64,000 nucleotides of DNA. Origin: an uncultured delta proteobacterium. GTDB taxonomy: Bacteria > Desulfobacterota > RBG-13-43-22. Position 1 is the first letter of the stretch. The number at the start of each line of letters is the position of its first letter. The notes beneath the pieces were generated by a model. That model ran no database searches. It had not been told where the DNA came from and worked only from the letters and a program-made list of their open reading frames with translations. Of this stretch, positions 47,054 through 64,000 are shown piece after piece. The translations under genes and the position numbers were made by a program. Where the stretch lies: assembly GCA_963790475.1 (NCBI GenBank), contig CAWBOS010000010.1, positions 320,001 through 384,000 on the forward strand. Direction: 5' to 3'.

Positions 47054-47080
47054 ATCTTACTCCAAAGCGATACTCCCATC

Positions 47081-47115
47081 CCTTGTACCTTATACCTTGT
47101 ACCATGTACCTTACC
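47081..47115. repeat. Degenerate heptamer tandem repeat (CCTTGTA)x5
   Basis: ccttgta ccttata ccttgta ccatgta ccttacc. Confidence 0.75.
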
Positions 47116-47121
47116 CCTTTT

Positions 47122-47673
47122 TTAATGGTGACAGGCCAGCCAGCAATCCAGTTGGGCCTTTTTTAATTTATGGCAGTCAATACAAAATTTCATCTTAAAT
47201 TTCTTTTTTTGCAGCCGGTCCATCCGCTCCACTTCCCCGTGGCAGTCACGGCAATCCAGTTTTCCGAAGCGCAAATGCGGCTGATGCCTGAACTTGACGA
47301 AATCGGGGACATAGAAGATGCGCACCCAGGGCACCGGCCTCCCGCTGTCATAATGCTCCTTTTCTTTAAGGAGCATGGGATGGGTGGGGATGATGTATTT
47401 ATGGCAGAAAAAACATTTTTCCATTTCCGGGAGTCCGGCATGTTCCGACCTCTCCACGTAGGGGTGACAAAACCGGCAGTTGATGGCCTTGACCCCGGCA
47501 TGAACCCGGTGGCTGAAAGGAACGGGCTGTCTGGGTCCGACCCCCTCACCGGGGTAAACATAATAAAAATAGAGCATCAGGGCCATCAGCAAAACTCCTA
47601 AGGAAAACCACTTTTTCCATGACGGCCCCTGCCCATTTTTTTTTGGTCGATCTTCAGCCATGGAGTTCATCAC
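47122..47673 (-). CDS. actA: Membrane-anchored pentaheme cytochrome c (ActA/QrcA-like)
   Basis: QPVPFSHRVH, CRFCH, CFFCH, F.HQPH, CRDCH, MKFCIDCH, CWLACH. Confidence 0.85.
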   Translation of the reverse strand: MMNSMAEDRPKKNGQGPSWKKWFSLGVLLMALMLYFYYVYPGEGVGPRQPVPFSHRVHAGVKAINCRFCHPYVERSEHAGLPEMEKCFFCHKYIIPTHPMLLKEKEHYDSGRPVPWVRIFYVPDFVKFRHQPHLRFGKLDCRDCHGEVERMDRLQKKKFKMKFCIDCHKLKKAQLDCWLACHH

Positions 47674-48914
47674 CGGCCTTCCTCATGGTCCGCATTCAGG
47701 GTGTCTAAAAATATGGGGTCCGTCAAGGGGAGCAAGGGGAACCGTTTAAAAAACCATTGGAGGCTCAAGGCCATGAGGCCTAAGAAACCGAGGCTGATCA
47801 AAAATTCCGAAAAACCCAAAGGGAGTCCCGGTCTTTTCCACAGGGAGGGGGCCACCAGCAGAAAACGCTCCAGCCACATCCCGATAAGGATGAGACCGGT
47901 CAGAATCAGCATGGGCCCCTGTTTCATTTTGACCTTTTTGCTCAACAGGGTGCCGAAGGGCACAATAAAAAAGAGGATCAGCACGGTCCAGGCCAGGAAA
48001 TTCCAGGGAGGAAAATTGACCCGGCTGATCACGAACCTGCTCTCTTCCGGCAGGTTCCCATACCAGATCACCAGGAATTGGGAAAAGAAAAAATCACCGT
48101 TGGTCAGACAAAAGGCCAGGAGCAACTTTCCAAGATCATGAAACTGGCTTTTTTGGATGAAATTTCCCAAGTCAAAGGTCTTGACCGAAATGATGGAAAG
48201 AAAGATCAAGGCGGCCAGGGCGCTGTAAAAGGCACCGGTGAAAAAATACATCCCGAAAAGGGTGCTGTACCAGTGGGGGGATAAAGACATGACCAGGTCA
48301 AAGCCGATCAGGCTGAGGGTCAGGGCATAAAGGATGGCCAGGATGGGCGCCAGGATGGCTTGTTTACGCAAGTTTTCTTTTCCTCGGTCCCGGAATCTTT
48401 CCCAGGCTTCAATCCCTTGGGAGGAAACTTCTTTTTCGCCCCGAACCGAAAAATAAACCAGGCCCAGAGAGACGGCCGTCAGCATGAAGAGGAAAATTCC
48501 GTCCCGGGCAAAGAGAAAGCCGATATTCAACCAGGCGGCCTTGAGGGGCAACGGGTGCTGAATCCAGGGGAAAAGTCTTTCCCGGCCTAAAAAAAGGACC
48601 CAGAAAAGCAGGAAGGCCAAGGGCAGAAAGACGACCGGGGCCTCGGCCAGGCGTTTTACCGGTCTTCCCCAACGAGCCTTGGTAATCACCAGGGTGGCGG
48701 AAAAAAGGACCGAGCCGAAGGCCATTCCGGACCAGAAAAGATAATTGATCAAAAAGATCTGCCAGGCCCTTTCCGGCTGTGGTCCCAAGACGCAGAACAA
48801 AAAGACGGCCCCGCCGACCAGGACCGCGGCCAGGAAGACCACGGACCAGCCGTTAGAGCCGGTGTTCTGGCCGGCGGCCTTCATCACTTGGCAGATTTCA
48901 TCCCGCGTAGTCAT
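47670..48914 (-). CDS. actF: Alternative complex III subunit ActF
   Basis: ARWGRPVKRLAE, DLVMSLSPHWYSTLFG, HDLGKLL, SQFLVIWYGNLPEE. Confidence 0.88.
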   Translation of the reverse strand: MTTRDEICQVMKAAGQNTGSNGWSVVFLAAVLVGGAVFLFCVLGPQPERAWQIFLINYLFWSGMAFGSVLFSATLVITKARWGRPVKRLAEAPVVFLPLAFLLFWVLFLGRERLFPWIQHPLPLKAAWLNIGFLFARDGIFLFMLTAVSLGLVYFSVRGEKEVSSQGIEAWERFRDRGKENLRKQAILAPILAILYALTLSLIGFDLVMSLSPHWYSTLFGMYFFTGAFYSALAALIFLSIISVKTFDLGNFIQKSQFHDLGKLLLAFCLTNGDFFFSQFLVIWYGNLPEESRFVISRVNFPPWNFLAWTVLILFFIVPFGTLLSKKVKMKQGPMLILTGLILIGMWLERFLLVAPSLWKRPGLPLGFSEFLISLGFLGLMALSLQWFFKRFPLLPLTDPIFLDTLNADHEEGR

Positions 48915-49437
48915 GGATCTCCTCGGCACCGGCCTCCTTGAGCAGAGCAGCGATTTTTTCCCGTTCCATGGGTGGGCAATAAATCAGCAGGCCGAAACGA
49001 TCATCGGAAAAGCGGGGGTCATAATGGGCCGGCAGATGCAACCGGGGCAGACGGGTGTGGATGAGCATTCCGGCAAAGGAAATAAGGACCCCGCACAAAA
49101 TCAGAAACTCAAAGCCGATGATGACAAAGGGGATCCAGGGGATGATCGGCTTACCGCTGACGATAAACCGCCACTGTAAGACCGTGTAGACGGCCAGGAA
49201 AAAACCGGAAACCAGGCCGAAGAGGCCGCCAAAAAGGGTGTAATAGCGCACCGGGCTTGGCCCCTTATCCAAGGCTTCCTGGACCTCTGGGGCAGCCGAA
49301 GGGCTAAAGACGGTAAAATCCAGGTTGGCCTTTCCGACGGCCTTTAAGGCCCCCAACAGATCGTCCAAATAGATAAAGATCCCCATCAAGGCCGGCCTGG
49401 CCATCGCCCTTTCCGTTTTATTCATGGGCTTATTCAT
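48898..49437 (-). CDS. actD: Alternative complex III subunit ActD (DUF3341)
   Basis: VSGKP...FVIIGFE, YDPRFSDDRFG, LKEAGA. Confidence 0.85.
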   Translation of the reverse strand: MNKPMNKTERAMARPALMGIFIYLDDLLGALKAVGKANLDFTVFSPSAAPEVQEALDKGPSPVRYYTLFGGLFGLVSGFFLAVYTVLQWRFIVSGKPIIPWIPFVIIGFEFLILCGVLISFAGMLIHTRLPRLHLPAHYDPRFSDDRFGLLIYCPPMEREKIAALLKEAGAEEIHDYAG

Positions 49438-50758
49438 GGGCCGTCCTTTCCCGCCGGGGAGGTTTGACCTCTTCCTTGACTTCGGCGATGGACAGGGTGG
49501 GCAAAAATTTGGAAAACAAAAAGAAGAAAAAGAAAAAGATACTGAAGGCCCCGAAAAGGATCCCGTATTCCACCCAGGTGGGACCGGGATAATGCCTCCA
49601 GATATACGGATCATAGGCATGGGCCGGAGAGCCGATGATGATCACATAACGCTCATACCACATGCCCACGACCACCATAACGGCAATCACATACAAGGTG
49701 ATGGTGTTGGTTCGAATTTTTTTGATAAAGTAAAACAGGGGGGCGACGGAATTACCGAAGACCATCAACCAGAACCATTCTTTATAATAGCCGACCATGC
49801 GCCAGTAAAAGTTGTCCTTTTCCGTGTTATCCCCGCTGTACCAGGAGATGAAGTGCTCGGTCAGATAGGAATAGCCCATGATCAAGCCGGTCAGGATGAT
49901 GGTTTTGGCGATATTTTCCAGGGTTTCCATGGTGATGATATTTTCGAATTTATAAATGCGCCGCAAGGGGATCAACAAGATGAGTACCATGGCCAGCCCG
50001 GAATGGATGGCCCCGGCCACAAAGTAGGGGGCGAAGATGGTGCTGTGCCAGCCGGGTAGAATGGACAGGGCAAAATCCCAGGAAACCACGCTATGGACGG
50101 AGATGACCAAAGGGGTGGCTAGGGCGGCCAGAAGGACAACCGCGCCACCATAATGACGCCACTGCCAGTGGGACCCGGTCCAGTTTAAAGAAAAAAAGCC
50201 GTACACCTTGCGCCGCAGCCCTTGGGACCGATCACGGATGGCCGCCAGGTCGGGAATAAGACCGGTATACCAAAACAGGACACTGACGGTAAGATAGGTG
50301 GAAATGGCGATCACATCAAAAACCAGGGGGGATTGAAAATCAGGCCAGAGAGTGCGCTGGTTGGGATAAGGAAGAATCCAATAAACCACCCAAACCCGAC
50401 CCAGGTGAATAAAAGGAAAAAGGCCGGCCACCATAACGGCGAATACTGTCATGGCCTCGGAGCTGCGCGATATGGCCGTGCGCCAGCGGGCCCGAAATAA
50501 ATAAAGGATGGCTGAGATCAAGGTACCCGAATGAGCCAGACCGACGAAAAAAACAAAATTAACTAGATAGGTGCCCCAGGCGATGGGGTGATTGGGTCCG
50601 GCTACTCCGATGCCCATGAGGATCTGGTAGGCCCAGCAGCCGGCCCCCACCAGAATGCCGCAGAACCAGAAGGCCACGATGCCCAGGTAGAGATTTCCCG
50701 GAGGGGACATGGCCCGTAAAACTTCCTGATTGACGGTGCTGTAGTTAAGGTCTTGCAT
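49430..50758 (-). CDS. actC: Alternative complex III subunit ActC (NrfD family)
   Basis: WGTYLVNFVFFVGLAHSGTLISA, HLGR, SPLVFD, SVHSVVSWDFA, GWHSTIFAPYFVAGA, WYER. Confidence 0.92.
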   Translation of the reverse strand: MQDLNYSTVNQEVLRAMSPPGNLYLGIVAFWFCGILVGAGCWAYQILMGIGVAGPNHPIAWGTYLVNFVFFVGLAHSGTLISAILYLFRARWRTAISRSSEAMTVFAVMVAGLFPFIHLGRVWVVYWILPYPNQRTLWPDFQSPLVFDVIAISTYLTVSVLFWYTGLIPDLAAIRDRSQGLRRKVYGFFSLNWTGSHWQWRHYGGAVVLLAALATPLVISVHSVVSWDFALSILPGWHSTIFAPYFVAGAIHSGLAMVLILLIPLRRIYKFENIITMETLENIAKTIILTGLIMGYSYLTEHFISWYSGDNTEKDNFYWRMVGYYKEWFWLMVFGNSVAPLFYFIKKIRTNTITLYVIAVMVVVGMWYERYVIIIGSPAHAYDPYIWRHYPGPTWVEYGILFGAFSIFFFFFFLFSKFLPTLSIAEVKEEVKPPRRERTAHE

Positions 50759-50774
50759 AGTTCAAACTAAAATA

Positions 50775-50873
50775 GGGGTCGAGGATTCAAGGGTTCGATG
50801 GTACAAGGTTTAAGGTACAAGGTATACGGTATACGATTTTTTCTAACCTTGAACCTTATACCTTGTACCGTCC
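50775..50873. repeat. Octamer/heptamer tandem repeats with inverted block (hairpin)
   Basis: (GGRKTCRA)x3, (GGTACAA-like)x5, then an inverted (ACCTTGT-like)x4. Confidence 0.7.
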
Positions 50874-50874
50874 A

Positions 50875-53838
50875 TTACGTTTCCAAAATGTGCGTTATCC
50901 TCTTGAGATAAATGACCGCCGGCTTGGTATTCAGATAACCCAGGACCTGATAACGGCGTTTGTCATCGATCAATCGGGAAACACGGCTTTCCGGGTCGAG
51001 GAGATTTCCAAAAATTAACGTGTCGGTCGGACAGGTCTGGGCGCAGGCCGTGGTGAATTCTCCGTCTCTTACTTTTCGGCCTTCGGCCCGGGCCTGAATC
51101 TTGGCCCCGATGATCCGCTGGACACAAAAAGAGCATTTTTCCATGACTCCTTTCTGGCGGACCGTCACATCGGGGTTGAGCTGCCAGTCCAGGGGACTGG
51201 GACGGGTATAGTTAAACCAGTTGAACCGCCGTACTTTATAGGGGTCGTTTTGCAGACAAAAACGGGTGCCGATACAACGGTTGTAGGTCTGGTTGTTCAG
51301 GCCTTCCGGGTTATGGACCGGGGCATAGACCGGGCAGACCGATTCACAGGGGGCAAAGTCGCAGTGCTGGCAGAGCATGGGCAACCAGCGGGCCATTCCA
51401 TCCTTTGGGTCAAAGTAACGCTGAATCCGGATCCAGGCCATCTCCCGGCCGTTGAGGACTTGCTGTTTTTCCACCACGGCCAGGTTGTTTTCCGCATAAC
51501 AGGCCACCACGCAGGCCGAACAGCCGATGCAGCGGTCCAGGTCGACCATCATCACCCAACGGTATTCCTTATGCTGATGGACAGGGTAAAAGTCCTTTCG
51601 CGGGTCAACCCCTTGCGGTAAAGGCAGGTCGATATAAGGGATCTCTGCGGTCTTAAGGGATTGTTGATAATCCTTCAAGGTCATGACCTGCATGAGATCC
51701 CGATCCCCCTGAAAAAAACTTCCGTCCACATGGGCCAGGGGAATTTGTTTATTTAATTTCCGGAAGCTTACTTTCTGGGTGGAGTGAAAAACCCCTCCTG
51801 AGGCTGGGTCAACGGCCGGAGAAAATAATGACAGGGGATTGACCGGATGTCCATCGGCATACCTTCCGTAATTCCAATGACCCTGACCGAGAGGCAGGGC
51901 CAATAGCCCCGGAGGGACGGTATAAATGGGATAGGCCGGTCCTTCCAGGCTTCCGTAAGGAGAGCTGATCAAAAGGATATCCCCTTTTTGGATCTCCAGG
52001 ACCTTAGCCGTTTCCGGGTGGATCTCAATCCAACCGTCCCAGGTAATCTGGGTCATAGGATCGGGAAGCTCCTGAATCCAGGGCCGGTTGGCCTCTCGGC
52101 CGTCAAAGAACTGGATAGTGGGGTAAACGGTCCATTCCATCATTGGATCGGATTTGGCGGTTTCTTTTATTTTGGAGAAGGAAAAGGATGGAGGCCTTGC
52201 CGGAAAAGCGGCTTTTTTATTTTTTGGCTCCTTCCAGATTCCCCCTTGCTCCAGGGCCTTTTGCCAAAACTCCTCCGGGTTCTGGCCGGCTTCTATTTCC
52301 TTTCCTTTTTGGATCCAATATTCCCGGAGGAATTGATAATAGTCCTTCCAGGGAAATCTATCCGGTCCGCTGACCTTTTTGCCGGATGAAATAAGGAGAT
52401 CCCCTAAAGGACGGGTTTGGAAAACCGGCCCCATGACCGGCTGCATCAACCCTGACACCCCTTCTCTGGGAGAATAGTCACCCCAGGACTCCAGAAAGGT
52501 GTGATTGGGAAGGACCAGGCCGGCCAGGGTGCTGGTCTCATCGGTATAACTGGAAAAACTGACCACTAAAGGGACCGAATTCAGACCTTGCCGAAATTCT
52601 GCCGAGAAGGGAAGGTTGAAAACCGGGTTAACCTGGCCCAGGAGCAAGAGATCGATTTCTTTTCTTTTCATCCTTTCCGTAAGTTCTTTAAGCTCGGTTA
52701 AAAGCGCTGTCCGGCCATAGGCAGTTGGGCTATTGAAATCGATTACTTCTCTCGAACCTGGCTTAAGCAGGCAGAGGAGATTGGCCGCTACGGCTGCATC
52801 CAGGGCATGGGGGCCGGAAAGGCCGAGCCCTTCGGCCAGGGCCAGAGGTTTTTGTGCCCGGCTGAACCTACGGGCCAGATCCCTGATCACTGGTATCTTG
52901 ACCCCGGTTTTTTGTTGGATCTGTTCCAGGGTAAACTCCTGCAGAGTTTTCCGGAGCCACCCTTGCTGATCAGTAGAAAGATAGTTAATCGATCCCTCGT
53001 CCAACAAAACTCGGAGCATACCCAGGCCGATGAGATACTCCTCTCCCGGAGGGACGGCAATCCACAGATCGGCATTGTTGGCTGTTAAAGAAAGTCTTGG
53101 CCCCACAAAGATAAAGGGGTTTTTCCCTTGAGGTTTCAGGGCGTGAAAGGCAGCAAATTGCCGGGCAAATTCCAGGTTGGAGATCCAGGTTTCCAAAAAA
53201 CCGGCCCCAAAAGAAATAAGGAAGTCGGCCTGGTCGATGCGGTAATGGGGTAAACCGTCATATTGAAAGACGAGCCGGTTGGCCTGGCGCAAGGGCTCAT
53301 AAGCAAAGGACTCGTAGCATAATGGGCCTTGGGAACCCATTTCCGAAAGCCAGCGATCGACTAACCCTTTTAAGCTGCCGGTTATCAATTCACTTACGAA
53401 AACAATTCGTTCGCCACGGCCCTGCCGAATAAGGTCGGTCAAGGTGCGGGCCAGCACTTCTTCACCGTGTTGCCAGGACACCGCGGTCAATTTGCCGTTT
53501 GCCTGGCGTTTAAAAGGTCCCGGGAATCGATCGGGATTATAAAGCCCCTGCAAGGAGGCCTGTCCGCGGGCGCAGAGTTTCCCTTGGCTGACAGGATGAA
53601 GAGGGTTCCCCTCCAATTTGACTACCCGTCCATCCCGGTTCTTGGCCACCAGGCCGCAACCGGCCGGACACCCCCGGCAAGTGCCGGCATACCAAACCGC
53701 CTTACCGGGGATGATATCCTCAGGGGGGAAAATATAAGGAACTAAGCGGTTGGGAGTATCGGATGAGCAACCCGTGACGGCGCTTGTTCCAGCTAACCCT
53801 ATGATCTTCAAAAAGTCCCGGCGCTTGAGATCAAACAT
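50875..53838 (-). CDS. actB: Alternative complex III subunit ActB (Tat-exported molybdopterin-fold + Fe-S fusion)
   Basis: KRRDFLK Tat plus lipobox TGC. CRGCPAGC...LCARG, WIQELPDP, CIGCSACVVAC, CQHC..APC..VCP, CIGTRFC, KCSFC. Confidence 0.92.
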   Translation of the reverse strand: MFDLKRRDFLKIIGLAGTSAVTGCSSDTPNRLVPYIFPPEDIIPGKAVWYAGTCRGCPAGCGLVAKNRDGRVVKLEGNPLHPVSQGKLCARGQASLQGLYNPDRFPGPFKRQANGKLTAVSWQHGEEVLARTLTDLIRQGRGERIVFVSELITGSLKGLVDRWLSEMGSQGPLCYESFAYEPLRQANRLVFQYDGLPHYRIDQADFLISFGAGFLETWISNLEFARQFAAFHALKPQGKNPFIFVGPRLSLTANNADLWIAVPPGEEYLIGLGMLRVLLDEGSINYLSTDQQGWLRKTLQEFTLEQIQQKTGVKIPVIRDLARRFSRAQKPLALAEGLGLSGPHALDAAVAANLLCLLKPGSREVIDFNSPTAYGRTALLTELKELTERMKRKEIDLLLLGQVNPVFNLPFSAEFRQGLNSVPLVVSFSSYTDETSTLAGLVLPNHTFLESWGDYSPREGVSGLMQPVMGPVFQTRPLGDLLISSGKKVSGPDRFPWKDYYQFLREYWIQKGKEIEAGQNPEEFWQKALEQGGIWKEPKNKKAAFPARPPSFSFSKIKETAKSDPMMEWTVYPTIQFFDGREANRPWIQELPDPMTQITWDGWIEIHPETAKVLEIQKGDILLISSPYGSLEGPAYPIYTVPPGLLALPLGQGHWNYGRYADGHPVNPLSLFSPAVDPASGGVFHSTQKVSFRKLNKQIPLAHVDGSFFQGDRDLMQVMTLKDYQQSLKTAEIPYIDLPLPQGVDPRKDFYPVHQHKEYRWVMMVDLDRCIGCSACVVACYAENNLAVVEKQQVLNGREMAWIRIQRYFDPKDGMARWLPMLCQHCDFAPCESVCPVYAPVHNPEGLNNQTYNRCIGTRFCLQNDPYKVRRFNWFNYTRPSPLDWQLNPDVTVRQKGVMEKCSFCVQRIIGAKIQARAEGRKVRDGEFTTACAQTCPTDTLIFGNLLDPESRVSRLIDDKRRYQVLGYLNTKPAVIYLKRITHILET

Positions 53839-54073: not shown

Positions 54074-54979
54074 ATGCCAAAGCTGAAATATTTTTTTGCC
54101 CTGTCCAGAACTCCCCACGGCATTCTTGACTTAGCCACCCCGGCCATAGCGGCCTTGCTCTGGTATGGGTCTATTCCCCCCCTTCAAATCCTCATCCTAG
54201 GCCTGGCAACGGCCTTTGCCGGATACACGGCGGTTTATGCTTTGAACGATTTGATGGATTATCATTTGGACCAGAAGAAACTGGAACTGGGAGGATTAGG
54301 TGACGGAGGAGGAGATTTGGATGCCCTGGTAATTCGTCATCCGTTGGCCCAGGGAGTCCTTACTTATAAAGAGGGACTGTTCTGGACAACCGCCTGGTCT
54401 TTTCTGGCCTTGATCGGCGCCTATCTGCTGAATCCTCTTTGCCTCCTTATTTTCCTGAGCGGCTGCGTCCTGGAGATGATTTACTGTCTCCTCTGGAGGA
54501 CCAGCCCGTTTCGGTCCCTTATCAGCGGTGCGGTCAAAACAGTCGGGGGTCTAGCGGCGGTTTTCGCTGTTGATCCCCATCCTTCCCCGGCCTTCCTGGT
54601 TCTCCTTTTTCTTTGGTTATTTTTTTGGGAAATCGGAGGTCAGAACATCCCCAACGACTGGATGGACATGGAGGAAGATCGGATGGTTCGAGCCAAAACC
54701 ATCCCCGTTGAGTTGGGAAAAACCTGGGCCATTTCGATTATTTTTACTTCTCTCCTTTTGGTCGTTGGTTTGAATGGAGTCCTTATGCGGTTTTCACCCT
54801 TGGGGGGGGAATTGAGCGCCGTCGTTGCTTCCCTGGGCCTGGGGATTTATTTGCTCCTTCTGCCCGGCTACCAGCTTATCAAGACGAAAGCCCGTCCTCA
54901 AGCCGTCATTTTATTTAATCGAGCCAGCTATTATCCCTTGGCTGTGCTTACAGTCATCAGCCTGTCCCTCGTGATTTGA
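54074..54979 (+). CDS. UbiA family prenyltransferase
   Basis: Multi-TM protein with NDLMDYHLD and NDWMDMEED Asp-rich motifs. Confidence 0.88.
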   Translation: MPKLKYFFALSRTPHGILDLATPAIAALLWYGSIPPLQILILGLATAFAGYTAVYALNDLMDYHLDQKKLELGGLGDGGGDLDALVIRHPLAQGVLTYKEGLFWTTAWSFLALIGAYLLNPLCLLIFLSGCVLEMIYCLLWRTSPFRSLISGAVKTVGGLAAVFAVDPHPSPAFLVLLFLWLFFWEIGGQNIPNDWMDMEEDRMVRAKTIPVELGKTWAISIIFTSLLLVVGLNGVLMRFSPLGGELSAVVASLGLGIYLLLLPGYQLIKTKARPQAVILFNRASYYPLAVLTVISLSLVI

Positions 54980-55001
54980 ATCTGTCGCCAGGAGAATTTC
55001 C

Positions 55002-55745
55002 ATGGAAGAGATCGATCCCAAAGAACTGCCGAAATTCAACGGGAAAGACGGGAATCCGGTTTATATCGCTCATCGTGGCCGGGTTATTGATGTGAGCGCC
55101 AGCAAGTTGTGGAATACCGGCCTTCATATGAACCGACATCATGCCGGAAATGATCTCACGACTGATATCCAAGCCGCTCCTCATGGACTGGAGGTTTTGG
55201 ACCGCTACCCGCAGGTGGCGGTACTCAAGAAAGAGGCCTCGACGGAAAAGCCCATACCGAAATTTTTGGCCTCTCTACTTAAACGATTTCCCATGCTCCG
55301 GCGACATCCCCATCCCATGACCATCCATTTTCCTATTGTCTTTTTGTTTGCCGCCCCCGTATTCACGATTCTTTTCCTTCTAACCGGAAGCCGGAGTTTT
55401 GAAACAACGGCCTGTCATTGTTTGGGGGCCGGCCTCTTTTTTACTCCGATAGCCATGGGTACCGGTTATTACACCTGGTGGCTGAATTATCGGGCTAGAT
55501 CCCTTAGACCGGTGAGGATCAAGAAAAAGGTTTCCGTGATCCTTCTGGGGATTGCCGTGATCGCCATGGGCTGGCGTATTTTGGATCAGGCTATTCTGAT
55601 TTCTCTGAGGCCGATCAGCTGGATTTATTTGATTCTTGTTTTTTCCCTGCTCCCCTTGGTCTCGGTCATGGGCTGGTTCGGCGCTCAGTTAACCTTTCCG
55701 ATTGAAAAGGAAATTCCCGCCGAAGATGAGAAGGGGAAGAGTTAA
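55002..55745 (+). CDS. Cytochrome b5-like heme-binding domain fused to DUF2231-like membrane domain
   Basis: FNGKDG.PVYIA..G.VIDVS...W..G.H...HHAG.DLT...APHG, then HPMTIHFPI and 4 TMs. Confidence 0.85.
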   Translation: MEEIDPKELPKFNGKDGNPVYIAHRGRVIDVSASKLWNTGLHMNRHHAGNDLTTDIQAAPHGLEVLDRYPQVAVLKKEASTEKPIPKFLASLLKRFPMLRRHPHPMTIHFPIVFLFAAPVFTILFLLTGSRSFETTACHCLGAGLFFTPIAMGTGYYTWWLNYRARSLRPVRIKKKVSVILLGIAVIAMGWRILDQAILISLRPISWIYLILVFSLLPLVSVMGWFGAQLTFPIEKEIPAEDEKGKS

Positions 55746-56032
55746 GCCCCTGACCTTCAGTTAAGATGGAATCGGCCGCGGAGGCAGGGAAACCTTGGGG
55801 CGGAAGCTTTACTTTTCTCTTCAGAGATATACAGTATTTTGATTTGACAAATACTATCCTTCCTGTATTCCTTTCAGATTTTTATTGAGTAAAATTAGTC
55901 CTAAAAAAATAGTGCTCCCTGAATGGAAGGAATGCGTTTCGCCCTTTTCCGCCTAAGAAAAGGGAGTGGCCTATAACCAAGTAAAATTTTGAATATTGAT
56001 CCGGATTATATGGAATGAAGGAGGATATAACC

Positions 56033-56395
56033 ATGAAAAACAAGAACGGTTCACGAAAAAATAGCGCCTTGGCTTTATCATTTACAGCCGGTAGTTTGAT
56101 TGGAGCGGCGGCAGGTTTACTTTTGGCACCCTGGGAAGGACGTCAAGCCAGGGGAAAACTAAAAGAATTTGGGGAGGAAGTCAAGGAGACATCGATTCGC
56201 TTATCCAATAATTGGAAGGAAAAGGCCGTCGGTTTTATGGAAAAAAGAAAAAATAGTTTTCCCCCGGAAAAGGACAACCTTACGGCTGGTCATGATGCCA
56301 AAGAGGCCGAAACCGGAGTCGGAAAAGAGATTCCATTGGCTCCTGAGGGACATAGCGATGAGGATTTCCTTCATCCAGCCCCGGTCTTCGAGTAA
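56033..56395 (+). CDS. YtxH-like protein
   Basis: GSLIGAAAGLLLAP..G...R motif. Confidence 0.75.
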   Translation: MKNKNGSRKNSALALSFTAGSLIGAAAGLLLAPWEGRQARGKLKEFGEEVKETSIRLSNNWKEKAVGFMEKRKNSFPPEKDNLTAGHDAKEAETGVGKEIPLAPEGHSDEDFLHPAPVFE

Positions 56396-56488
56396 TTATA
56401 TAGAACAACCCCCGGTTTGAAACTGCTCTGGCAGGTCAAGGGGAAAGTCGGTCTACGCTTGATGGGGAATTTGATACTCTGTGCAGGG

Positions 56489-57316
56489 CTAAACAGAAGG
56501 GCTGTTTTTACAACCCCAGTGTACCACGGCAATCCCGTTGGTCAGGGGTCGATAGTTTACCTGAAGAAACCCGATTTCTTCCAGGAGACGAGTCAATTCT
56601 TTCGGCGAAGGGAAAAGCCGTATGGATTCGGGCAGGTAGGTGTAGGCCTGCCGGGATCCTCCAATAAGGAGTCCCAACAGGGGCATAATATGAAAAGAGT
56701 AAAAATCGTATAACCGGCGGAACAGTGGGTTTGTGGGGTTGGAGAATTCGAGACAGATAAATCGTCCCCCGGGTTTGAGGACCCGATGCATCTCCTTAAA
56801 GCCTTCCTCCATATGGGTCAGGTTTCGGAATCCAAAGCCGACCATGGCCGCATCAAATTGGCCGGATCCAAAGGGCAGCCGTTCTGCATCTCCCTGGGCA
56901 TAAAATATTTTCTTCCTGAACGAGGCATTGGTCGATTTTCGGCGTCCGATTTCCATCATCTTCCGATTAATATCGACTAAGACGACTTTTCCCGAACCTT
57001 TCATTCGCTTTAAGGCCAGGACGGAAAGATCACCTGTGCCGCCGCAGATGTCCAGGAGACTGTCTTCCGGCTGTAATCTTAAGAGATTGACAGTGGTACG
57101 TTTCCAGAGGTAATGAATACCGAAGCTCAGAATGGTATTCATCAAATCGTATTTTTGGGCTACCGTATCGAAATGGTCGCGCACCCAACGGACTTTTTCC
57201 TGGGTCGGGACTTTACGAAATCCGAAATGGGTCGTTTCCTGATCACCTTCCGATTTTTTGCCGGCTTTATTTTCTTCCGCTTCCGGCTTGTTTTCCGAGA
57301 ATTTATGAACAGTCAT
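56489..57316 (-). CDS. ubiE: UbiE/MenG quinone C-methyltransferase
   Basis: THFGF, FDTVAQKYDLMN..LSFGIH..WK, LDICGGTGD, GDAERLPF, RVLKPGG, AYTYLPESI. Confidence 0.92.
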   Translation of the reverse strand: MTVHKFSENKPEAEENKAGKKSEGDQETTHFGFRKVPTQEKVRWVRDHFDTVAQKYDLMNTILSFGIHYLWKRTTVNLLRLQPEDSLLDICGGTGDLSVLALKRMKGSGKVVLVDINRKMMEIGRRKSTNASFRKKIFYAQGDAERLPFGSGQFDAAMVGFGFRNLTHMEEGFKEMHRVLKPGGRFICLEFSNPTNPLFRRLYDFYSFHIMPLLGLLIGGSRQAYTYLPESIRLFPSPKELTRLLEEIGFLQVNYRPLTNGIAVVHWGCKNSPSV

Positions 57317-57329
57317 CCTTGGTTCCTCT

Positions 57330-58184
57330 TCAGGCCGGAATTTCTATAGGAAGACCGGATTCCAGGAAAATAGGTTTCAGGTATTGGAGACTGGCCTGGC
57401 CGGCTTCTTCGGGCATGTCCACATAAGGGTAAAGTTCCAGGCTGATATCGCCTTGATATCCCAGGGCAGACATGGCTTTAAAGAGCTTCAAATAGGGAAT
57501 AGCCCCTTGTCCGGCAATAAGATGCTGGTGGACCCGGCTGGGGGCAATATCCTCAAGATGAACATGACCTATCCAGGGGAAAAGATCTTCAAAAACTTTT
57601 ACCGGGTCCTCTCCGGCACAAAAAAAATGACCCATGTCAAAATTCAATCCAACGTTGGGCGAATTCACTTCCAGGATAAACGATTTAAATTGAGAGCTGT
57701 TCTCCAGCAGAAGATCAGGTTCGGGCTCGATCAGGATTTGGATCCCCAAGGACACGGCCGTGGGGATGACCTGTTCCAAACCTTGGTGGAATAATAATAA
57801 GGCCTTTTCCCGGCTCATCTCCTTCAGGGGCCCCCCGGGTGGAACCGATATATTCCTACAACCTAAAATGTCGGCAACCTTAAGACAATCCAGGGTATGA
57901 CGGATCCGCATCCCTCGTCTCTGTTCTTCGGCCTCAATCCAGGAAGGAAGATAGGTGTCTCCAACGGCGAAGAGGGTAAAGCTGTTCAGGTTGGTTATAG
58001 TCAACCCCTGGTCGGAAATAGATCTCTTGAGATGCCTCATTTCCACTTCTCCGAAATCCGGCGGATAGAGATGAGGGCGGTCACACATAATCTCCAGGCC
58101 TTTAAACCCCAAAGAAGCGATCTTGGCCACGGAATCCTCCAGGGAAAATTTGACAAAGGCATTAGTGCTGTAACCGAACTTCAT
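57330..58184 (-). CDS. Sugar phosphate isomerase/epimerase (xylose isomerase-like TIM barrel)
   Basis: GYSTNAF, EIMCDRPH, IEPEP, FDMGH, HVHLEDI, HQHL, SLELY. Confidence 0.88.
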   Translation of the reverse strand: MKFGYSTNAFVKFSLEDSVAKIASLGFKGLEIMCDRPHLYPPDFGEVEMRHLKRSISDQGLTITNLNSFTLFAVGDTYLPSWIEAEEQRRGMRIRHTLDCLKVADILGCRNISVPPGGPLKEMSREKALLLFHQGLEQVIPTAVSLGIQILIEPEPDLLLENSSQFKSFILEVNSPNVGLNFDMGHFFCAGEDPVKVFEDLFPWIGHVHLEDIAPSRVHQHLIAGQGAIPYLKLFKAMSALGYQGDISLELYPYVDMPEEAGQASLQYLKPIFLESGLPIEIPA

Positions 58185-58228
58185 TGACTCCTCAATTTCT
58201 TATCAATCGTTGATGTTTTGCAGGGATG

Positions 58229-59410
58229 CTAAGAGGTAACCGGCTTCCGGGATAGAGAGGTATCACAAACCCTTTCCAACCCATCCAGACCAAATAACTG
58301 GTCTTGAAAAGTCAAGGGGGGGTCCTTCCCAACAGGTTTCTTGAAAAAGAAACTTAGTTCCGAAATAGGCCCTGATTTTCCTGACAGATGAACAGCCGTC
58401 ATCCATCGGGCCAGATCCAATATCAAAGGGGCCGCTAAGACCGAGTCCCGTCCTTGGAAGTCCAGTCGAAGACTCATGGGCAAACCGAACAAGCCCAGGA
58501 AGTCGATAACATCCCAGGCTTCTTTGGCATCTCCGCGAGGCGGATAATAATCAATAGAGACCTTGTGTGAAACCGCTGAATACCTCTTTCCCACTTTATA
58601 CCCCAGGATTTCATCCAGGAGTTCCGTCTTATTTTTAAGTTTTCCCCGGGCCTTGTCCGGGTCGGCCAGGTTCGCCCCGTCCGCATTCCCGAGGATATTC
58701 AGGCTGTACCAGCCATCGATAAAGAGATTTCTGGCTTTGAAGGCTGAGGCCAGGACAACCTTCAAATAAGTCTGACCGGTCTTTCCGTCCCGTCCGCACC
58801 AGGGGACCCCTTTTTTAATGGCTTCCCGAAGGAGCAATGGCAGCTCCACTTCATTAGAGGTGAAATTAATTATCGGGAGTCTGCATTGGATGGCAGCTAA
58901 AACGTAAGCCATATCCGGGAAGGTCCGCGGGTCCAATTCCGAAAAGAGCTGTGACAAGGTACGACAGTGGGATAAATCAGGAGAAGCAGATGCCGGCAGA
59001 AGGTTGATAAAAACAGGACGGCTGTTGGGAAACCGGGTTTTCAATTGCCGGATTTCTTTCACCCTCTGTCCGACCCAGGATTTAAGGTCCAGGGGAGCTT
59101 CCGGGATTTCTATTATAGGAATTCGGTTTAAGACGGGGGCGTAAGGCCTCCAGATTTCTTCCGTAAGAACCCCTTGATCTCTTATGGAGTCAATAAGGCT
59201 TTTTCGACTTTTATCCCATCCGGCTATTTGGATAGCTTGAGGGGATCCAAGATAGGGGAACTTTTCGGCCGTGGTCAAGCTGGGGAGCACCAGACTTGGG
59301 TTCTGGCTTAGGGCGGACACGGCCACGGCCAGGGTGGAAGCTACAGCGCCTTTGGCACCGGCGACCAATAGTAAAATGGGAGAAAGGAAGGGATCGGAAG
59401 ATGAGGTCAT
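58229..59410 (-). CDS. Myo-inositol-1-phosphate synthase family protein
   Basis: GAKGAVAST, GRDGKTGQT, NILGNADG, RGDAKEAWD, DSVLAAPLILDL, FFFK. Confidence 0.88.
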   Translation of the reverse strand: MTSSSDPFLSPILLLVAGAKGAVASTLAVAVSALSQNPSLVLPSLTTAEKFPYLGSPQAIQIAGWDKSRKSLIDSIRDQGVLTEEIWRPYAPVLNRIPIIEIPEAPLDLKSWVGQRVKEIRQLKTRFPNSRPVFINLLPASASPDLSHCRTLSQLFSELDPRTFPDMAYVLAAIQCRLPIINFTSNEVELPLLLREAIKKGVPWCGRDGKTGQTYLKVVLASAFKARNLFIDGWYSLNILGNADGANLADPDKARGKLKNKTELLDEILGYKVGKRYSAVSHKVSIDYYPPRGDAKEAWDVIDFLGLFGLPMSLRLDFQGRDSVLAAPLILDLARWMTAVHLSGKSGPISELSFFFKKPVGKDPPLTFQDQLFGLDGLERVCDTSLSRKPVTS

Positions 59411-59684
59411 GGTTTATAATTTAATATTCCTTTGAGTATCCAATAGCATAAACAGGATAGGAAAAAAGGGCAAGGAAAAAATCTGATTTTCAATTGGCAC
59501 TTGTGGCAGCAAGTTAAAATGTTCCCTGTAAGAGTGGAGACAATCCGACCCTCAGGGGATTGATGACTACGGACTGAGGGAGGAAAGGTCTTCGAGGAGA
59601 TTGCCTTTTTAAATGAAGATGCAGCAGACTTTGTGCCGGTCAGAACCTCCGTTGTGCGGGAAAAGTCAAAACGATATGGAGCGG

Positions 59685-60478
59685 ATGATGATGAAATTTC
59701 CTTTTGAAGTTCCTTTTGAGGACGTGCAGGCTGATCTTGACCAGTATGTGACCGCGATATTTTCCTGTAAGGTTTCGTCCGTACTCTCGACCGGGATATC
59801 CGGCTGGCACCGATAACACCCCTTAAGATCAGCAGCCAGAGCGCGGTACGGCTGGATGCCTTGGTCATGACCGCATGTGAGTTCCTTAAAAAGAATGTCC
59901 CGAATGTGGCGCGGAACAAAATACATCGGCTTGACAAGGCTGATACGAGAACAGGTCTGGATGGAATAAGATCACTTGCCGATATCGGGGTTCCTTATGC
60001 CATGCTGCTGTATGAGCGGTTCCTTGGCAGACCTTTCGCGGGTCACCGAGACTCCGTGAGCGATCTTATCGGAGACAGTCTGGAATCGGCAATTGAGGAT
60101 GTGTTAAGCAAGGCAGGTATCACCTACCGGAAGACAAAAAGGGCGGAGAAAATTCAAGATTTTGATCAAACGCCGGATTTTATTATTCCCAGTGAATTCA
60201 ATCCACAGGCTATTATTGAGGCGAAAATAACCGAGGACGATGGTACGGCGCGTGACAAAGTCGCCCGCATCCAACGCCTGGGTACGCTAAGTATGAAAGG
60301 ACAGCCGGAGGGAAAGCCGAAGTACGAAGTCATCGCCTGCATTGCGGGTCGAGGTTTCGGGGTTCGGCGGGAAGACATGAAAAGGATAATCTTGGCAACA
60401 GGGGGGAAGGTGTTTACCCTACAGAATCTGGACAAGCTCGTTGAGTGTACGAAGTTGAAGGAATTTAGAACAAAGTAA
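59685..60478 (+). pseudogene. PD-(D/E)xK restriction endonuclease-like gene, 5' part disrupted
   Basis: PDFIIP...IIEAKITEDDGTARDK. The N-terminal fragment (MKFPFEVPF...) is in another frame. No methyltransferase is adjacent. Confidence 0.55.
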
Positions 60479-60599: not shown

Positions 60600-61307
60600 C
60601 TAAGAAGCCATCTTACAGACGCCGGATGGGCACTGTTTTCCTTTGATGTGGCCTTCAAATTCTTCTTTGAAGTTGGACAAAACCGACAGGATGATGTGGG
60701 ACACCTTGCCGGCAAAGGAGCAATAGGGGGCCTGTTTCATGAGGACTATCAGGGATTCCATTTCGGTCACGGCATTAGCCGGTGCCTGGCCGCATCTTAT
60801 GGCGGTGATTAAATCGGCCAGTCTCTGTATCCCCAGTCGGCAGGGGGCACATTTGCCGCAGGATTCATCGTAATGGAATTTGATCAGATATTCGGCGATC
60901 TCTACCATACACAAAGAGGGGTCCATGGCCATGATACAACCCGTGGCCTTTTCCCAGATCAAATCACCGCGGATGGATTGAAGCGGGTTGAGTCGCAATA
61001 AGGGGAAAACGATCTTGCCCTGTTGAACGGTTTCTTTCAGAATGGCCTCAATATGACCTTCTTTGACCTTGTGGTAGAAAACACCCAGATAAGGGAAACT
61101 TAAAAAAGCCCCATCCTGACAAGTCCCGGAACATCCGCATTTGGCCGGTTCTACGACCACCGGGATCTTCAGGCGTTCTGCTTCAGCAATAAGACCTTTA
61201 TAGATCGATTCCGCCCCGCAGGTTTTAGCCTTGGGATTGCGGCACACCGTAATCTTCGGGATGGTGGTAATTAGGGGTTCTGCGATATTTAGAGCGGTTT
61301 TAGCCAT
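60600..61307 (-). CDS. Thioredoxin-like 2Fe-2S domain fused to NuoF C-terminal 4Fe-4S domain
   Basis: VC..(CGA)..CGCSGTCQDG N-domain. C-terminal ESCGKCAPCRLG...YCSFAG...EEFEGHI...CPSGVC. Confidence 0.8.
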   Translation of the reverse strand: MAKTALNIAEPLITTIPKITVCRNPKAKTCGAESIYKGLIAEAERLKIPVVVEPAKCGCSGTCQDGAFLSFPYLGVFYHKVKEGHIEAILKETVQQGKIVFPLLRLNPLQSIRGDLIWEKATGCIMAMDPSLCMVEIAEYLIKFHYDESCGKCAPCRLGIQRLADLITAIRCGQAPANAVTEMESLIVLMKQAPYCSFAGKVSHIILSVLSNFKEEFEGHIKGKQCPSGVCKMAS

Positions 61308-61325: not shown

Positions 61326-62744
61326 TTAAGATATAATCGTCTTGCAGGCCGTCCGGGCCAGATCAAGAAACCAGGCCGGCAAGGTACCCATCAAGAGTAT
61401 GGCCAGGATCAACCCGTAGTTCAATAATCGATTGGAGAAACTCAAGGTCACCGCCGGTAACCCGTCGGGGTCCTGTCCGTAGGCTGAGCGCACGATATTC
61501 AGGTAATAATAAATTGAAATCGCCGCATTCACTGCGGCAATGATCACCAAAGCCAGGTGCCCTTGATTCAAGGCGGCGGCGAAAAGAAAAAATTTTCCGG
61601 TAAATCCGGCTGTAGGTGGAATACCGGCCAGGGCGAAGGCCCCCACCGCCAAGGTAAAGGCTAATAAAGGAGAACGCCGGTACAGTCCGGAAAGGTCGCT
61701 GATGGTGACATTTTCTCCTTCGCGGGAAACGGCACATATCACCAAAAAGCAGGCCAGGTTCATTAATAAATAAGCGGAGATGTGGAATATGGCGGCAGAA
61801 AAGCCAACGGAGTTCAGGGTCAAGACCCCCATCAGGACATAACCGGCATGGGCGATACTGGAATAGGCCAGCAGGCGTTTAAGGTCTTTTTGGACCAAAG
61901 CCGCCAGGTTTCCAAAGGTCATGGAAACAATTGCCAGAAGAACCAGGACTTGAATCAAATCAACGGCCCCGTTTCCGGCCAGGCTGACTAACCGAAGCAA
62001 CAAGGCTACGGCCCCCACTTTTGGCATGGTGGCCACAAAAGACACGGTTTCATTGGCCGCCCCCTGGTAAATATCCGGGGTCCAGAAATGGAAGGGGACC
62101 ACCGCCAGCTTAAAGAAAAACCCACAGAGAACCAGGAGAAGCCCGATAACGGCTATGGGTTCCTTTAACAGCAAAGGCATCTTCTGGAGAATGTCCATCA
62201 AATAGGTGGATTGGGTGACTCCAAAGATATAACTCATGCCGAAAAGCATAACCCCGGTGGCCGCGGCCCCGAAGATAATGTATTTAATAGCCGCTTCCAT
62301 TTGGTTGCCGCCAACCTGATTGCGGATCGGGATCAGGACATAAATGGAGTAAGAAGACAGCTCCATGGCGATAAAAATGGCTAACAGCTCGACACTGCTG
62401 ACCATCAGCATCAGACCCAGGGAGCTGAGACTCAGAAACATATAAAATTCCGGTTGAAGACGTTCCTCGATGCTTTTGAGCTTCCGTCCCAGTCCAATGA
62501 CCAGGAACAGGCCGAGACTAAGCAGACATTTGAATGTTTGTGAGAACAGGTCAACCCGATAAGCCTTATAAAAGAGCTCCCCCGAGGCATTGAGGCTTAA
62601 CAGGCTAATGATTACCACGAGAGCGGAAAGGAAAAAGGCCATTCCCTGATTCAATGCAGCTGACGATTTCCACAAGGATTGGCAGAAAAAGATCAGGGCC
62701 ATTAAAAGTAGAAAGGTTTCCGGTAGAAATAACAAGAAATTCAT
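61326..62744 (-). CDS. nuoN: NADH-quinone oxidoreductase subunit N
   Basis: EAAIKY, FKLAVVPFHFWTPDIYQGA, KRLLAYSSIAHAGY, LAGIPPTAGF.GKF. Confidence 0.95.
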   Translation of the reverse strand: MNFLLFLPETFLLLMALIFFCQSLWKSSAALNQGMAFFLSALVVIISLLSLNASGELFYKAYRVDLFSQTFKCLLSLGLFLVIGLGRKLKSIEERLQPEFYMFLSLSSLGLMLMVSSVELLAIFIAMELSSYSIYVLIPIRNQVGGNQMEAAIKYIIFGAAATGVMLFGMSYIFGVTQSTYLMDILQKMPLLLKEPIAVIGLLLVLCGFFFKLAVVPFHFWTPDIYQGAANETVSFVATMPKVGAVALLLRLVSLAGNGAVDLIQVLVLLAIVSMTFGNLAALVQKDLKRLLAYSSIAHAGYVLMGVLTLNSVGFSAAIFHISAYLLMNLACFLVICAVSREGENVTISDLSGLYRRSPLLAFTLAVGAFALAGIPPTAGFTGKFFLFAAALNQGHLALVIIAAVNAAISIYYYLNIVRSAYGQDPDGLPAVTLSFSNRLLNYGLILAILLMGTLPAWFLDLARTACKTIIS

Positions 62745-62827
62745 TATAATTCGTTCCTCGGTAAAATACTCAAAGCTGAAAGCTCCAAGCTCAAACAAAA
62801 TACTTAAACAAGAAAGCGTTCAATCTT

Positions 62828-64000
62828 TTATTTCACTAAAGCCAAAGCACTTCCGGCCTGGACTTGCTGGACCAAGTGGTTCACGCTGGCATGCATGACA
62901 TCCAAAAAGGGGCCCGGTGAAAAACCAATCCACAAGACGAATATGGCCAGCGGGACCAGATAAACGATCTCCCGGGTATTCATATCTTTAAAGGAGGGGT
63001 TTCCTTCACCTCCCCAGGCGATCTTCTGCAGCAACCGGAGCATATAGGCGGCAGCCAAAACCACCCCTGGGATGGCAACGGCGCCGATCAGCTTGTTATC
63101 CAAAAAGGTGCCGATTAAAACCAGGAGCTCGCCTACAAAACTGTTGGTCCCGGGAAAGGCCATGGAAGAAAGACTGAAAAAACCTAAAAACCCGATGTAA
63201 ATGGGCATAATTTTGCTTATCCCGGAGTTGACCGTAATCAACCTGCTGTGGCTTCTCTCATAAATGATCCCTACGCAGAGAAAGAGTGCCCCGGTGGTGA
63301 TGCCGTGATTGATCATCTGCAGGATGGCCCCTTCCAGTCCGGATTTATTGAAGAGAAAGGTACCCAAGGTGACAAACCCCATGTGGGCCACGCTGGAATA
63401 GGCGATCAACCGTTTCATGTCGCTTTGCCCCAAGGCCACATACCCGCCATAAATGATGGAGATGATGGAGATCCAAAGGACATAGGGGGCAAAGTAGACA
63501 CTGGCTTGGGGGAGGATAGGCAAACAAAAGCGCACGAAACCGTAAGTCCCCATTTTCAACAGTACGCTGGCCAGGATGACACTGCCCGCGGTCGGGGCCT
63601 CCACATGCGCGGCCGGCAACCAGGTATGGAGCGGGGCCATCGGGACTTTGATGGCGAAAGCGATTCCCATGGCCAGGAAGACCCAGAATTGAAAGTTAAA
63701 GGAGTAGGTATGGGTCATCAATTCCGGGATGCTGAAGGTGCCGGTCTTTACATAAAAGGCGATCATGGCCACCAGGAGGAAGACGCTGCCGGCCATGGTG
63801 TAGATGAAGAACTTGATCGAAGCATAAACCTTGGCCGGGCCACCCCAGACGGCTATCAATAGATACATGGGGACCAGCATGGCCTCAAAGAAAATATAAA
63901 ATAGAACGAAATCCAGAGCCGAGAAAACCCCGACGCAAGCTGTTTCAATCAAAAGGAGACAGAACAGAAATTCTTTGACCCGTTTCTCGATGTATTTCCA
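62828..64000 (-). CDS. nuoM: NADH-quinone oxidoreductase subunit M (5' truncated by window)
   Basis: FYIFFE, HTWLPAAHVEAP, LLKMG.YG, IAYSSVAHMG, NHG, FVGE. Confidence 0.95.
   Translation of the reverse strand, partial: WKYIEKRVKEFLFCLLLIETACVGVFSALDFVLFYIFFEAMLVPMYLLIAVWGGPAKVYASIKFFIYTMAGSVFLLVAMIAFYVKTGTFSIPELMTHTYSFNFQFWVFLAMGIAFAIKVPMAPLHTWLPAAHVEAPTAGSVILASVLLKMGTYGFVRFCLPILPQASVYFAPYVLWISIISIIYGGYVALGQSDMKRLIAYSSVAHMGFVTLGTFLFNKSGLEGAILQMINHGITTGALFLCVGIIYERSHSRLITVNSGISKIMPIYIGFLGFFSLSSMAFPGTNSFVGELLVLIGTFLDNKLIGAVAIPGVVLAAAYMLRLLQKIAWGGEGNPSFKDMNTREIVYLVPLAIFVLWIGFSPGPFLDVMHASVNHLVQQVQAGSALALVK

Follow-up and report, generated by a model that had tools for sequence, protein, structure and literature searches.

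We examined a group of putative lipid-biosynthesis genes that lies beside the genes for an alternative complex III (ACIII) and a cbb3 oxidase in a 64,000-nucleotide stretch of DNA, hereafter the window (contig CAWBOS010000010.1, positions 320,001 to 384,000, assembly GCA_963790475.1), from an uncultured member of the Desulfobacterota. The genome that holds it, G000 (window, G000:C10:320001-384000), is a 6.34-Mb metagenome-assembled genome that is 100% complete by marker genes, and the whole region lies on one 2.02-Mb contig. Other G numbers denote sampled genomes of the phylum, f numbers denote families and L numbers loci. The genes with which we are mainly concerned encode an inositol-1-phosphate synthase (MIPS)-like protein, a TIM barrel, a UbiE, a UbiA and a b5/DUF2231 protein; they and their respiratory neighbours are:

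54074-54979, plus strand: prenyltransferase of the UbiA superfamily, of an unnamed clade (PF01040)
55002-55745, plus strand: b5/DUF2231 membrane protein, partner of UbiA, with an N-terminal cytochrome b5-like domain (Pfam)
56489-57316, minus strand: UbiE-type quinone C-methyltransferase (PF01209)
57330-58184, minus strand: xylose-isomerase-like TIM barrel, predicted to be metal-dependent, the fixed partner of the MIPS-like gene (Pfam AP_endonuc_2)
58229-59410, minus strand: cyclitol-phosphate synthase of the MIPS family, a divergent paralogue (PF01658 and PF07994)
44389-53838, minus strand: ACIII, then the cbb3 oxidase (Pfam)
50875-53838, minus strand: actB, part of ACIII
45366-46748, minus strand: ccoN of the cbb3 oxidase, COX1-type
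44389-45387, minus strand: fused ccoO/P of the cbb3 oxidase (FixO joined to a cytochrome c)

By Pfam, ACIII consists of actB, two NrfD-type subunits, ActD and a multihaem c subunit. UbiA and actB are divergent, with a spacing of 235 bp, and the run MIPS–TIM–UbiE, with gaps of 44 bp and 13 bp, converges on UbiA–b5/DUF2231. This is the layout given in a preliminary description made from the sequence alone; the open reading frames (ORFs), strands, gaps and orientations are exactly as stated there, and every family that it named was confirmed by both Pfam and NCBIfam. We conclude that this region exemplifies a conserved and undescribed Desulfobacterota module, made up of two fixed gene pairs and a connecting methyltransferase. 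Literature searches found no published description of this gene combination.

The preliminary description had staked its case on conservation of the gene order, which proves to extend well beyond close kin, in the form of the two pairs with UbiE as their connector. The MIPS-like family is large (1973 scored relatives), and an alignment of it led to at least 569 loci in species-representative genomes (569 of 599 matched stretches confirmed), from which we fetched 80. In 75 of these 80 loci the gene immediately downstream of MIPS is TIM, and in the other five MIPS stands at a contig end. UbiE follows TIM in 10/80, and a window-type UbiA lies within 10 kb in 5/80. We also examined 28 UbiA loci, 24 of which have a called member of the clade. 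The b5/DUF2231 gene adjoins UbiA in 14 of the 24, in four of five further loci (at least 18/29), and, as detected by tblastn, in G223, where clustering had missed it. The other neighbours of UbiA in the 24 loci were UbiE (at least 11), MT3, a second methyltransferase described below (12), TIM and/or MIPS (7) and a divergent actB (6, in two families).

All genome-level searches used the same sample of 251 genomes from the phylum. UbiE stands beside MIPS in nine of the 11 sampled genomes that have the window's MIPS clade (G000, G014, G044, G084, G119, G161, G181, G223 and G249). Genes in the order MIPS–TIM–UbiE(–MT3) either overlap or are spaced by 13 to about 75 bp, an operon-like layout; in six or more families of the phylum, both pairs are connected by a UbiE that belongs to a distinct clade. 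The full set of UbiA, b5/DUF2231, MIPS, TIM and UbiE, with the convergent layout of the window, is also found in G017, which belongs to a different genus of the same family, and, with MT3 added, in G223, of another family. On the MIPS tree the UbiE-linked state needs five changes, at least three of them forced by well-supported branches, and is therefore spread over the tree. All five closed genomes whose MIPS–TIM has other neighbours have a UbiA-clade gene at another site, against a background of 10% (25/251) in the sample. The arrangement is not a chance neighbourhood and recurs far above chance.

The genes upstream of MIPS–TIM also track the MIPS tree. They comprise an FtrD-like membrane Fe-S protein with a MacB-type ABC system (17 loci), NUDIX plus cupin (11 loci, in one clade), a cbb3/CcoI cluster (10 loci) and Usp/Hsp20/Lon (seven loci). 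At L022 (G006:C46) and L023 (G007:C303), a MIPS remnant covering residues ∼36–91 lies between nuoN and ubiE, and no TIM gene is left; the MIPS–TIM pair appears to have been lost recently there.

We then compared the distribution of the module with that of quinone and oxidase genes in the sample, where the numbers of genomes with a match were:

UbiA clade: 25/251
window's MIPS clade: 11/251
UbiA clade and MIPS clade together: 7/251
UbiE/MenG: 218/251
MqnA/D: 122/251
MenD: 11/251
UbiD family: 183/251
ccoN (E <= 1e-60): 42/251

The tie to the O2-reducing branch suggested in the preliminary description holds at genome level. Window-type ccoN, for which we required at least 49% identity (23 of the 42 matches; a threshold picked after the list was seen), is present in 20/29 genomes with the UbiA or MIPS clade vs 3/222 others, and with no identity threshold all 42 matches give 21/29 vs 21/222; by family the ccoN–module association is 7/6/2/78 (Fisher p = 5.7e-6), and because kin are not independent all of these co-occurrence figures are indicative only. 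In G161, ACIII, cbb3, MIPS, TIM and UbiE lie on the same strand within 14 kb, and cbb3/CcoI genes are directly upstream of MIPS–TIM in about 10/78 loci.

The MIPS-like protein belongs to its family by both Pfam domains (Inos-1-P_synth PF01658, 102.3 bits; NAD_binding_5 PF07994, 60.2 bits) and is full-length, with 7nwr as its top PDB match by profile (217.8 bits, profile positions 1–362). Its motifs GrDGKTGQT, ilGN.DG, PPrGDaKeAwD, rDSilAAP and fyFKkP align with those of Archaeoglobus fulgidus MIPS (1u1i) and were also aligned to 7nwr; they presumably contain the catalytic Lys and Asp residues. Against the equivalog model TIGR03450 it scores 26.5 bits, far below the cut-off of 638. The canonical MIPS of G000 lies elsewhere (C10:747618-748766; TIGR03450, 424.6 bits), is about 27% identical to the window paralogue, and is directly followed by a gene for a CDP-alcohol phosphatidyltransferase (CDP-OH_P_transf). 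No such gene was found beside the window MIPS in a Pfam scan of its neighbours. The inositol-phospholipid operon thus resembles the module in having a first enzyme of the MIPS family, but in G000 it is separate, and the window paralogue is paired with a TIM barrel instead. Partnership of MIPS with a CDP-alcohol transferase, which the preliminary description had said would count against its proposal, is a property of the canonical gene.

The TIM barrel matches AP_endonuc_2 at 131.5 bits. In an alignment of 24 sequences E153, D183, H186 and L251 are invariant, and H209 and E250 nearly so; judged from sequence, these conserved acidic and His residues are of the kind that binds metal in this fold. 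By profile, the closest PDB entries are MJ1311 (3wqo, 75.4 bits), Art22 (41.4 bits) and AsbF (3dx5, 35.9 bits). MJ1311 is uncharacterised, and we found no useful literature on it or on Art22. By score the protein is not IolE (40 bits, cut-off 290).

UbiA is a member of its superfamily (PF01040, 103.6 bits, cut-off 34.2) with both Asp-rich motifs kept. In 19 sequences the motifs NDxxDxxxD, DxxxD and LSRTPHG are conserved, N58, D59, D66, D195 and D202 are invariant, and D62 and D198 are near-invariant; the ALSRTPHG motif that the preliminary description used to mark the clade is real, with LALSRTPHG as its consensus. The protein reaches no equivalog cut-off, its best NCBIfam match being TIGR01475 (71 bits vs 180.8); it gave no match to MenA (TIGR00751) and 22–28 bits with the MqnP models (NF041584/5, cut-offs 375–420). 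Its partner scores 60.7 bits with DUF2231 and 23.2 bits with Cyt-b5, just below the cut-off of 23.7. Invariant His residues occur in the b5-like domain (H42, H46 and, in APHG, H61) and in the DUF2231 part (H102 and H104 of RRHPHP, and H109). There are about 2020 relatives, mainly in Thermodesulfobacteriota; a Protein Atlas search with a homologue returned its own family only, and literature searches found no functional work on DUF2231.

Is the module UbiA simply the menaquinone prenyltransferase? In four genomes that have MqnA/D (G044, G084, G119 and G161), another UbiA, scoring 139–180 bits, adjoins a UbiD-like gene, and the module UbiA scores 93–98 bits; G044, G084 and G119 have exactly two UbiA-family genes each. 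The presence in futalosine genomes of a separate MqnP-like UbiA beside a UbiD-like gene implies that the module UbiA is an extra enzyme. Grouping with MqnP or MenA, the outcome that would have spoken against the preliminary description, is therefore not what we observe, since the MenA, MqnP and UbiA models all failed as well. The module shares with the late steps of menaquinone synthesis (MenA/MqnP and MenG/UbiE) a prenyltransferase and the genome's only UbiE/MenG, placed near nuo and quinol-oxidising complexes; it differs in that its UbiA does not fit the MenA/MqnP models, and in that futalosine genomes with the module have separate MqnP/MqnL pairs. In some genomes it stands alongside complete futalosine genes.

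We considered, and rejected, the idea that the module replaces a missing menaquinone pathway: MIPS–TIM occurs with MqnA/D in 5/11 MIPS genomes, and the window's class lacks MqnA/D and MenD regardless of MIPS–TIM. The search for a separate mqn/men pathway, proposed as a check in the preliminary description, thus gives a divided answer, with MqnA/D present in those five genomes and neither MqnA/D nor MenD found in any of the 21 genomes of the window's class. In G000 itself the best MenD match scores 95 bits (cut-off 244), and a MenB-like gene (C1, 324 bits) was rejected as a men gene, as it sits among CoA-transferase and butyrate-kinase genes.

Across the sample, about 119/251 genomes have UbiE/MenG but neither MqnA/D nor MenD. 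Families f12, f13 and f16 each have MqnA/D and MenD in 0/8 genomes, the same state as the window's class (21/21). Such genomes have either an unrecognised ring pathway or ring salvage. Genomes with neither menaquinone pathway are also noted in PMC13386864. G000, with no MenD or MqnA/D found, has two MenA-like paralogues just over the TIGR00751 cut-off (G000:C12:951033-951953 and G000:C12:72179-73144; 106.5 and 105.4 bits vs 102.15). It also has a 584-aa frame (G000:C6:523266-525020) whose C-terminal part matches the UbiA family and whose N-terminal part looks IspH-like by eye.

The window's UbiE (PF01209, 249 bits) is the only strong UbiE/MenG of G000, where the next-best match scores 69 bits. 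It is over the cut-offs of TIGR01934 (256.1 bits vs 158.35) and NF001244 (236 vs 216), which places it in UbiE/MenG, and below those of MpqE NF052510 (277.6 vs 335) and UbiE NF001242 (277.1 vs 351). MpqE is its top NCBIfam match, as it is for all module UbiEs tested (272–287 bits, all under 335). In a tree of 40 rows, midpoint-rooted only, a branch with 100/99 support divides 13 ordinary Desulfobacterota MenG-type sequences, drawn from futalosine, men and 'neither' genomes, from a clade of 27 rows that holds every module-linked UbiE together with four UQ (ubiquinone)-like UbiEs, the exact place of the latter being weakly supported. The module type of UbiE fits benzoquinol methylation, to judge from these relationships, without proving it. 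The preliminary description had supposed a dedicated electron carrier or lipid for the O2-reducing branch; for UbiE a dedicated role does not follow, as this is the only UbiE/MenG of the genome. In most other lineages UbiE is accompanied by MT3, a class I S-adenosylmethionine methyltransferase of about 200 aa that matched no specific NCBIfam family.

The UbiE clade raises the possibility that the product is a high-potential benzoquinone derived from 4-hydroxybenzoate (4-HB), of the UQ, plastoquinone or methyl-plastoquinone kind, made by a core of UbiA, UbiB, UbiE and MT3 comparable to MpqA/B/E, with MIPS–TIM having no part in the ring. The UQ pathway of one Desulfobacterota class (GWC2-55-46) and the methyl-plastoquinone pathway of Nitrospirota are like the module in having a UbiA-family prenyltransferase and a UbiE-type C-methyltransferase, in the placing of UQ-like UbiEs and MpqE just described, and in the link to high-affinity oxidases in otherwise anaerobic lineages. 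PMC13386864 describes the former as occurring with such oxidases, and PMC11874023 gives mpqA, mpqB and mpqE as the conserved methyl-plastoquinone core, with mpqD/X missing in Nitrospira and Leptospirillum. Such a route would account for UbiA-clade genomes that have no MIPS–TIM. G000 has one UbiB/ABC1 gene, in an uninformative neighbourhood, and UbiB is reported, in the preprint 10.64898/2026.03.05.709815, to be able to replace decarboxylation by UbiD/X; a 4-HB route may therefore still operate in G000, where UbiD was not found despite 100% completeness by markers.

Nevertheless, the module UbiA is by score not orthologous to the UbiA/MpqA type (35 bits vs 275 with TIGR01474, 28–34 bits with other 4-HB prenyltransferase models), and no sampled genome with a UQ-like UbiE gave a match to a window-type UbiA query (E <= 1e-50). 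Only one chorismate-binding enzyme was found in G000, where UbiC was not searched for. The MIPS–TIM–UbiE operons would be left unexplained, and no described quinone pathway includes the MIPS–TIM pair or a b5/DUF2231 protein. We therefore regard a 4-HB-derived quinone as quite unlikely.

A sugar-phosphate cyclase, a xylose-isomerase-like TIM barrel and a UbiA-family prenyltransferase are also combined in ebo/thallusin-type clusters (eboA-F), and the preliminary description had seen an ebo-like core here. This did not hold up: the TIM barrel, the only EboE-model match in G000, scores 24.2 bits with EboE NF035939 (22.9 in the genome search; cut-off 250), and a Pfam scan of 20 neighbouring ORFs showed none of the EboA, EboB (TatD hydrolase) or EboF (phosphatase) families. 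The module cyclase is of the MIPS family (PF01658/PF07994), in contrast to the DHQS-like EboD, and the scanned neighbours include no DHQS-like gene; UbiE, MT3 and b5/DUF2231 are additions, and the linkage is to cbb3/ACIII instead of secondary metabolism. None of the 15 NCBIfam matches of the window UbiA bears the name EboC. A same-genus relative, G009, has a true EboE (G009:C33:3842-4912, 406 bits, over the cut-off) as well as the module TIM, from which it follows that the two TIM families are distinct and able to coexist. The closest parallel in enzyme type is the Actinomycetota form of ebo, in which, according to the preprint 10.64898/2026.05.21.724671, Ino1, a MIPS, and two isomerase/dehydratase genes (ino1-ino3) are proposed to replace EboD, and the UbiA-type EboC to prenylate the resulting cyclitol-derived aromatic.

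The module might, by the same logic of cyclase, TIM barrel and UbiA (set out for ebo in PMC12904256), make a prenyl-cyclitol lipid that is not a quinone, with UbiA, in the manner of DGGGP synthase, alkylating a hydroxyl on a cyclitol phosphate and the methyltransferases decorating the head group. The best equivalog-type matches of the window UbiA are indeed DGGGP-synthase-like (PRK12884, 59 bits; PRK12883, 40 bits), and the module has no phosphatase, so that the cyclitol could stay phosphorylated. We find this distinctly improbable in view of a methyltransferase that is a bona fide UbiE-family member by the TIGR01934 and NF001244 scores above, and the genome's only one, and of a TIM barrel that is not EboE, in a window without TatD/EboF genes.

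We propose instead, tentatively and as something that falls a little short of probable, that the module makes a second prenylated and methylated membrane lipid of the quinol type, distinct from menaquinone and linked to ACIII–cbb3. The lipid would serve as electron carrier or membrane antioxidant with this O2-reducing branch: UbiA would prenylate a ring, UbiE would C-methylate it, MT3 would add a second methyl where present, and b5/DUF2231 would supply or remove electrons. Where MIPS–TIM is present, it may supply the ring, with glucose-6-phosphate being converted to inositol phosphate or inosose phosphate, which the TIM barrel would then dehydrate and aromatise; this step is the weaker part of the proposal. 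AsbF and IolE, of the same TIM superfamily, perform comparable carbocycle chemistry. With ring oxygens taken from the sugar, no hydroxylase or decarboxylase would be required. The Ino1 route proposed for Actinomycetota ebo clusters offers a precedent. The preliminary description had proposed just such an inositol-derived ring, prenylated and methylated. The linkage of MIPS–TIM, UbiA and UbiE on which that idea drew is conserved, and the ring itself we consider plausible but weak, because 18 of the 25 sampled UbiA-clade genomes showed no MIPS–TIM and the pair lacks UbiE in 70/80 loci. MIPS–TIM may act as an optional ring supply, as a modifier or as the producer of an independent protectant.

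In its most specific form the proposal is that the product is a methylated polyprenyl benzoquinol and that glucose-6-phosphate directly provides both the carbons and the oxygens of its ring. Cyclisation of this precursor would fall to the MIPS-like enzyme, TIM would dehydrate and aromatise the product to hydroxy-hydroquinone, UbiA would prenylate it, MT3/UbiE would methylate it, and b5/DUF2231 would carry out a redox step. We think this unlikely as it stands; if true, the route would need no chorismate, decarboxylase or O2-dependent hydroxylase.

Several observations weigh against a second quinol-type lipid, or against a cyclitol origin for its ring. Besides the two absences just given, MIPS–TIM was found in none of the three genomes of f37, which yet have UbiA–b5–MT3–UbiE beside ACIII–cbb3; the pair was not found in G011 and G012, the closest relatives, where TIM was searched for too, and no substitute for it was seen upstream of UbiE in genomes without it. 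The module does not include a phosphatase, a dehydrogenase or a hydroxylase, and no MT3 orthologue was found in the window's genome. The UbiB report cited above leaves room for a ring from 4-HB in place of a cyclitol. The contamination estimate of the assembled genome is 9.68%, although the region is on a single contig. Many bacteria that have only menaquinone use ACIII–cbb3 without a special quinone. Finally, UbiE/MenG is nearly always single-copy across the 218 sampled genomes that carry one, G000 included, so its position may reflect mere clustering of respiratory genes.

Much of this would be expected if the genes were co-regulated neighbours in an O2- or stress-responsive respiratory region and did not form one pathway. 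UbiE would then be the ordinary (demethyl)menaquinone methyltransferase, UbiA–b5/DUF2231 would have an unrelated job in the membrane or at the oxidase, and MIPS–TIM would make a soluble inositol-derived protectant, either a compatible solute or an antioxidant. The UbiE-less MIPS–TIM loci fit this well, lying as they do beside stress genes and transporters (Lon/Hsp20/Usp, the FtrD-like protein with the MacB-type ABC system, peroxiredoxin, rubrerythrin, Crp-type regulators, NUDIX and cupin) or beside cbb3, and so do the Usp genes that flank UbiE in G011 and G012, and the persistence of UbiE beside nuoN in G006 and G007 after loss of MIPS–TIM. It would not explain why MIPS–TIM–UbiE(–MT3) is operon-like in six or more families and scattered across the MIPS tree, why the UbiA clade occurs in every closed genome with MIPS–TIM elsewhere, or why module-linked UbiEs fall in a clade of their own apart from ordinary MenG. 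We consider this reading serious but rather unlikely, and a second quinol-type lipid is the interpretation that we retain.

The remaining features of this part of the window are:

56015-56395, plus strand: small YtxH-like protein (Pfam YtxH, 43.5 bits), located where the convergent units meet, after b5/DUF2231 and before the 3' end of UbiE
59407-59937, minus strand: 176-aa ORF without a family, overlapping the MIPS start by 4 bp
60600-61307, minus strand: 235-aa ORF after nuoN, with only the C-terminal NADH_4Fe-4S domain of NuoF (Pfam/NCBIfam)
61326-63952: nuoN and nuoM (Pfam/NCBIfam)

The YtxH-like ORF, seen among the compared loci in G011 only, is probably outside the module. The 176-aa ORF has no Pfam or NCBIfam match and no tblastn match in the 80 MIPS loci or in relatives, and may be spurious or lineage-specific. 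In G003 and G009 the distance from nuoN to MIPS is no more than about 400 bp, and tblastn gave no match there to the 235-aa NuoF-fragment ORF. A promoter scan gave promoter-like sites at the level of shuffled sequence and terminator-like sites (20 vs 11.1 +/- 3.6 in shuffles) without usable signal.

We conclude that the gene arrangement first noticed in this window is confirmed and strengthened, and that its interpretation finds partial support. The module is a real and conserved one with a tie to a single cbb3 clade; its product and the role of MIPS–TIM are putative, resting on comparison of sequences. Should a second prenylated redox lipid be what the module produces, it would represent an undescribed quinone-type pathway in a phylum whose quinone is generally taken to be menaquinone, ubiquinone being known from one class, and would bear on the many sampled genomes (about 119/251, as above) that have UbiE/MenG without a recognised menaquinone pathway. 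It would also provide functions for DUF2231 and for a large family of MIPS paralogues. Should the ring come from glucose-6-phosphate, strict anaerobes would have a higher-potential quinone dedicated to ACIII–cbb3, and respiratory quinone rings a third origin. In either case the lipid would be linked to the means by which 'strict' anaerobes survive oxygen or respire it.

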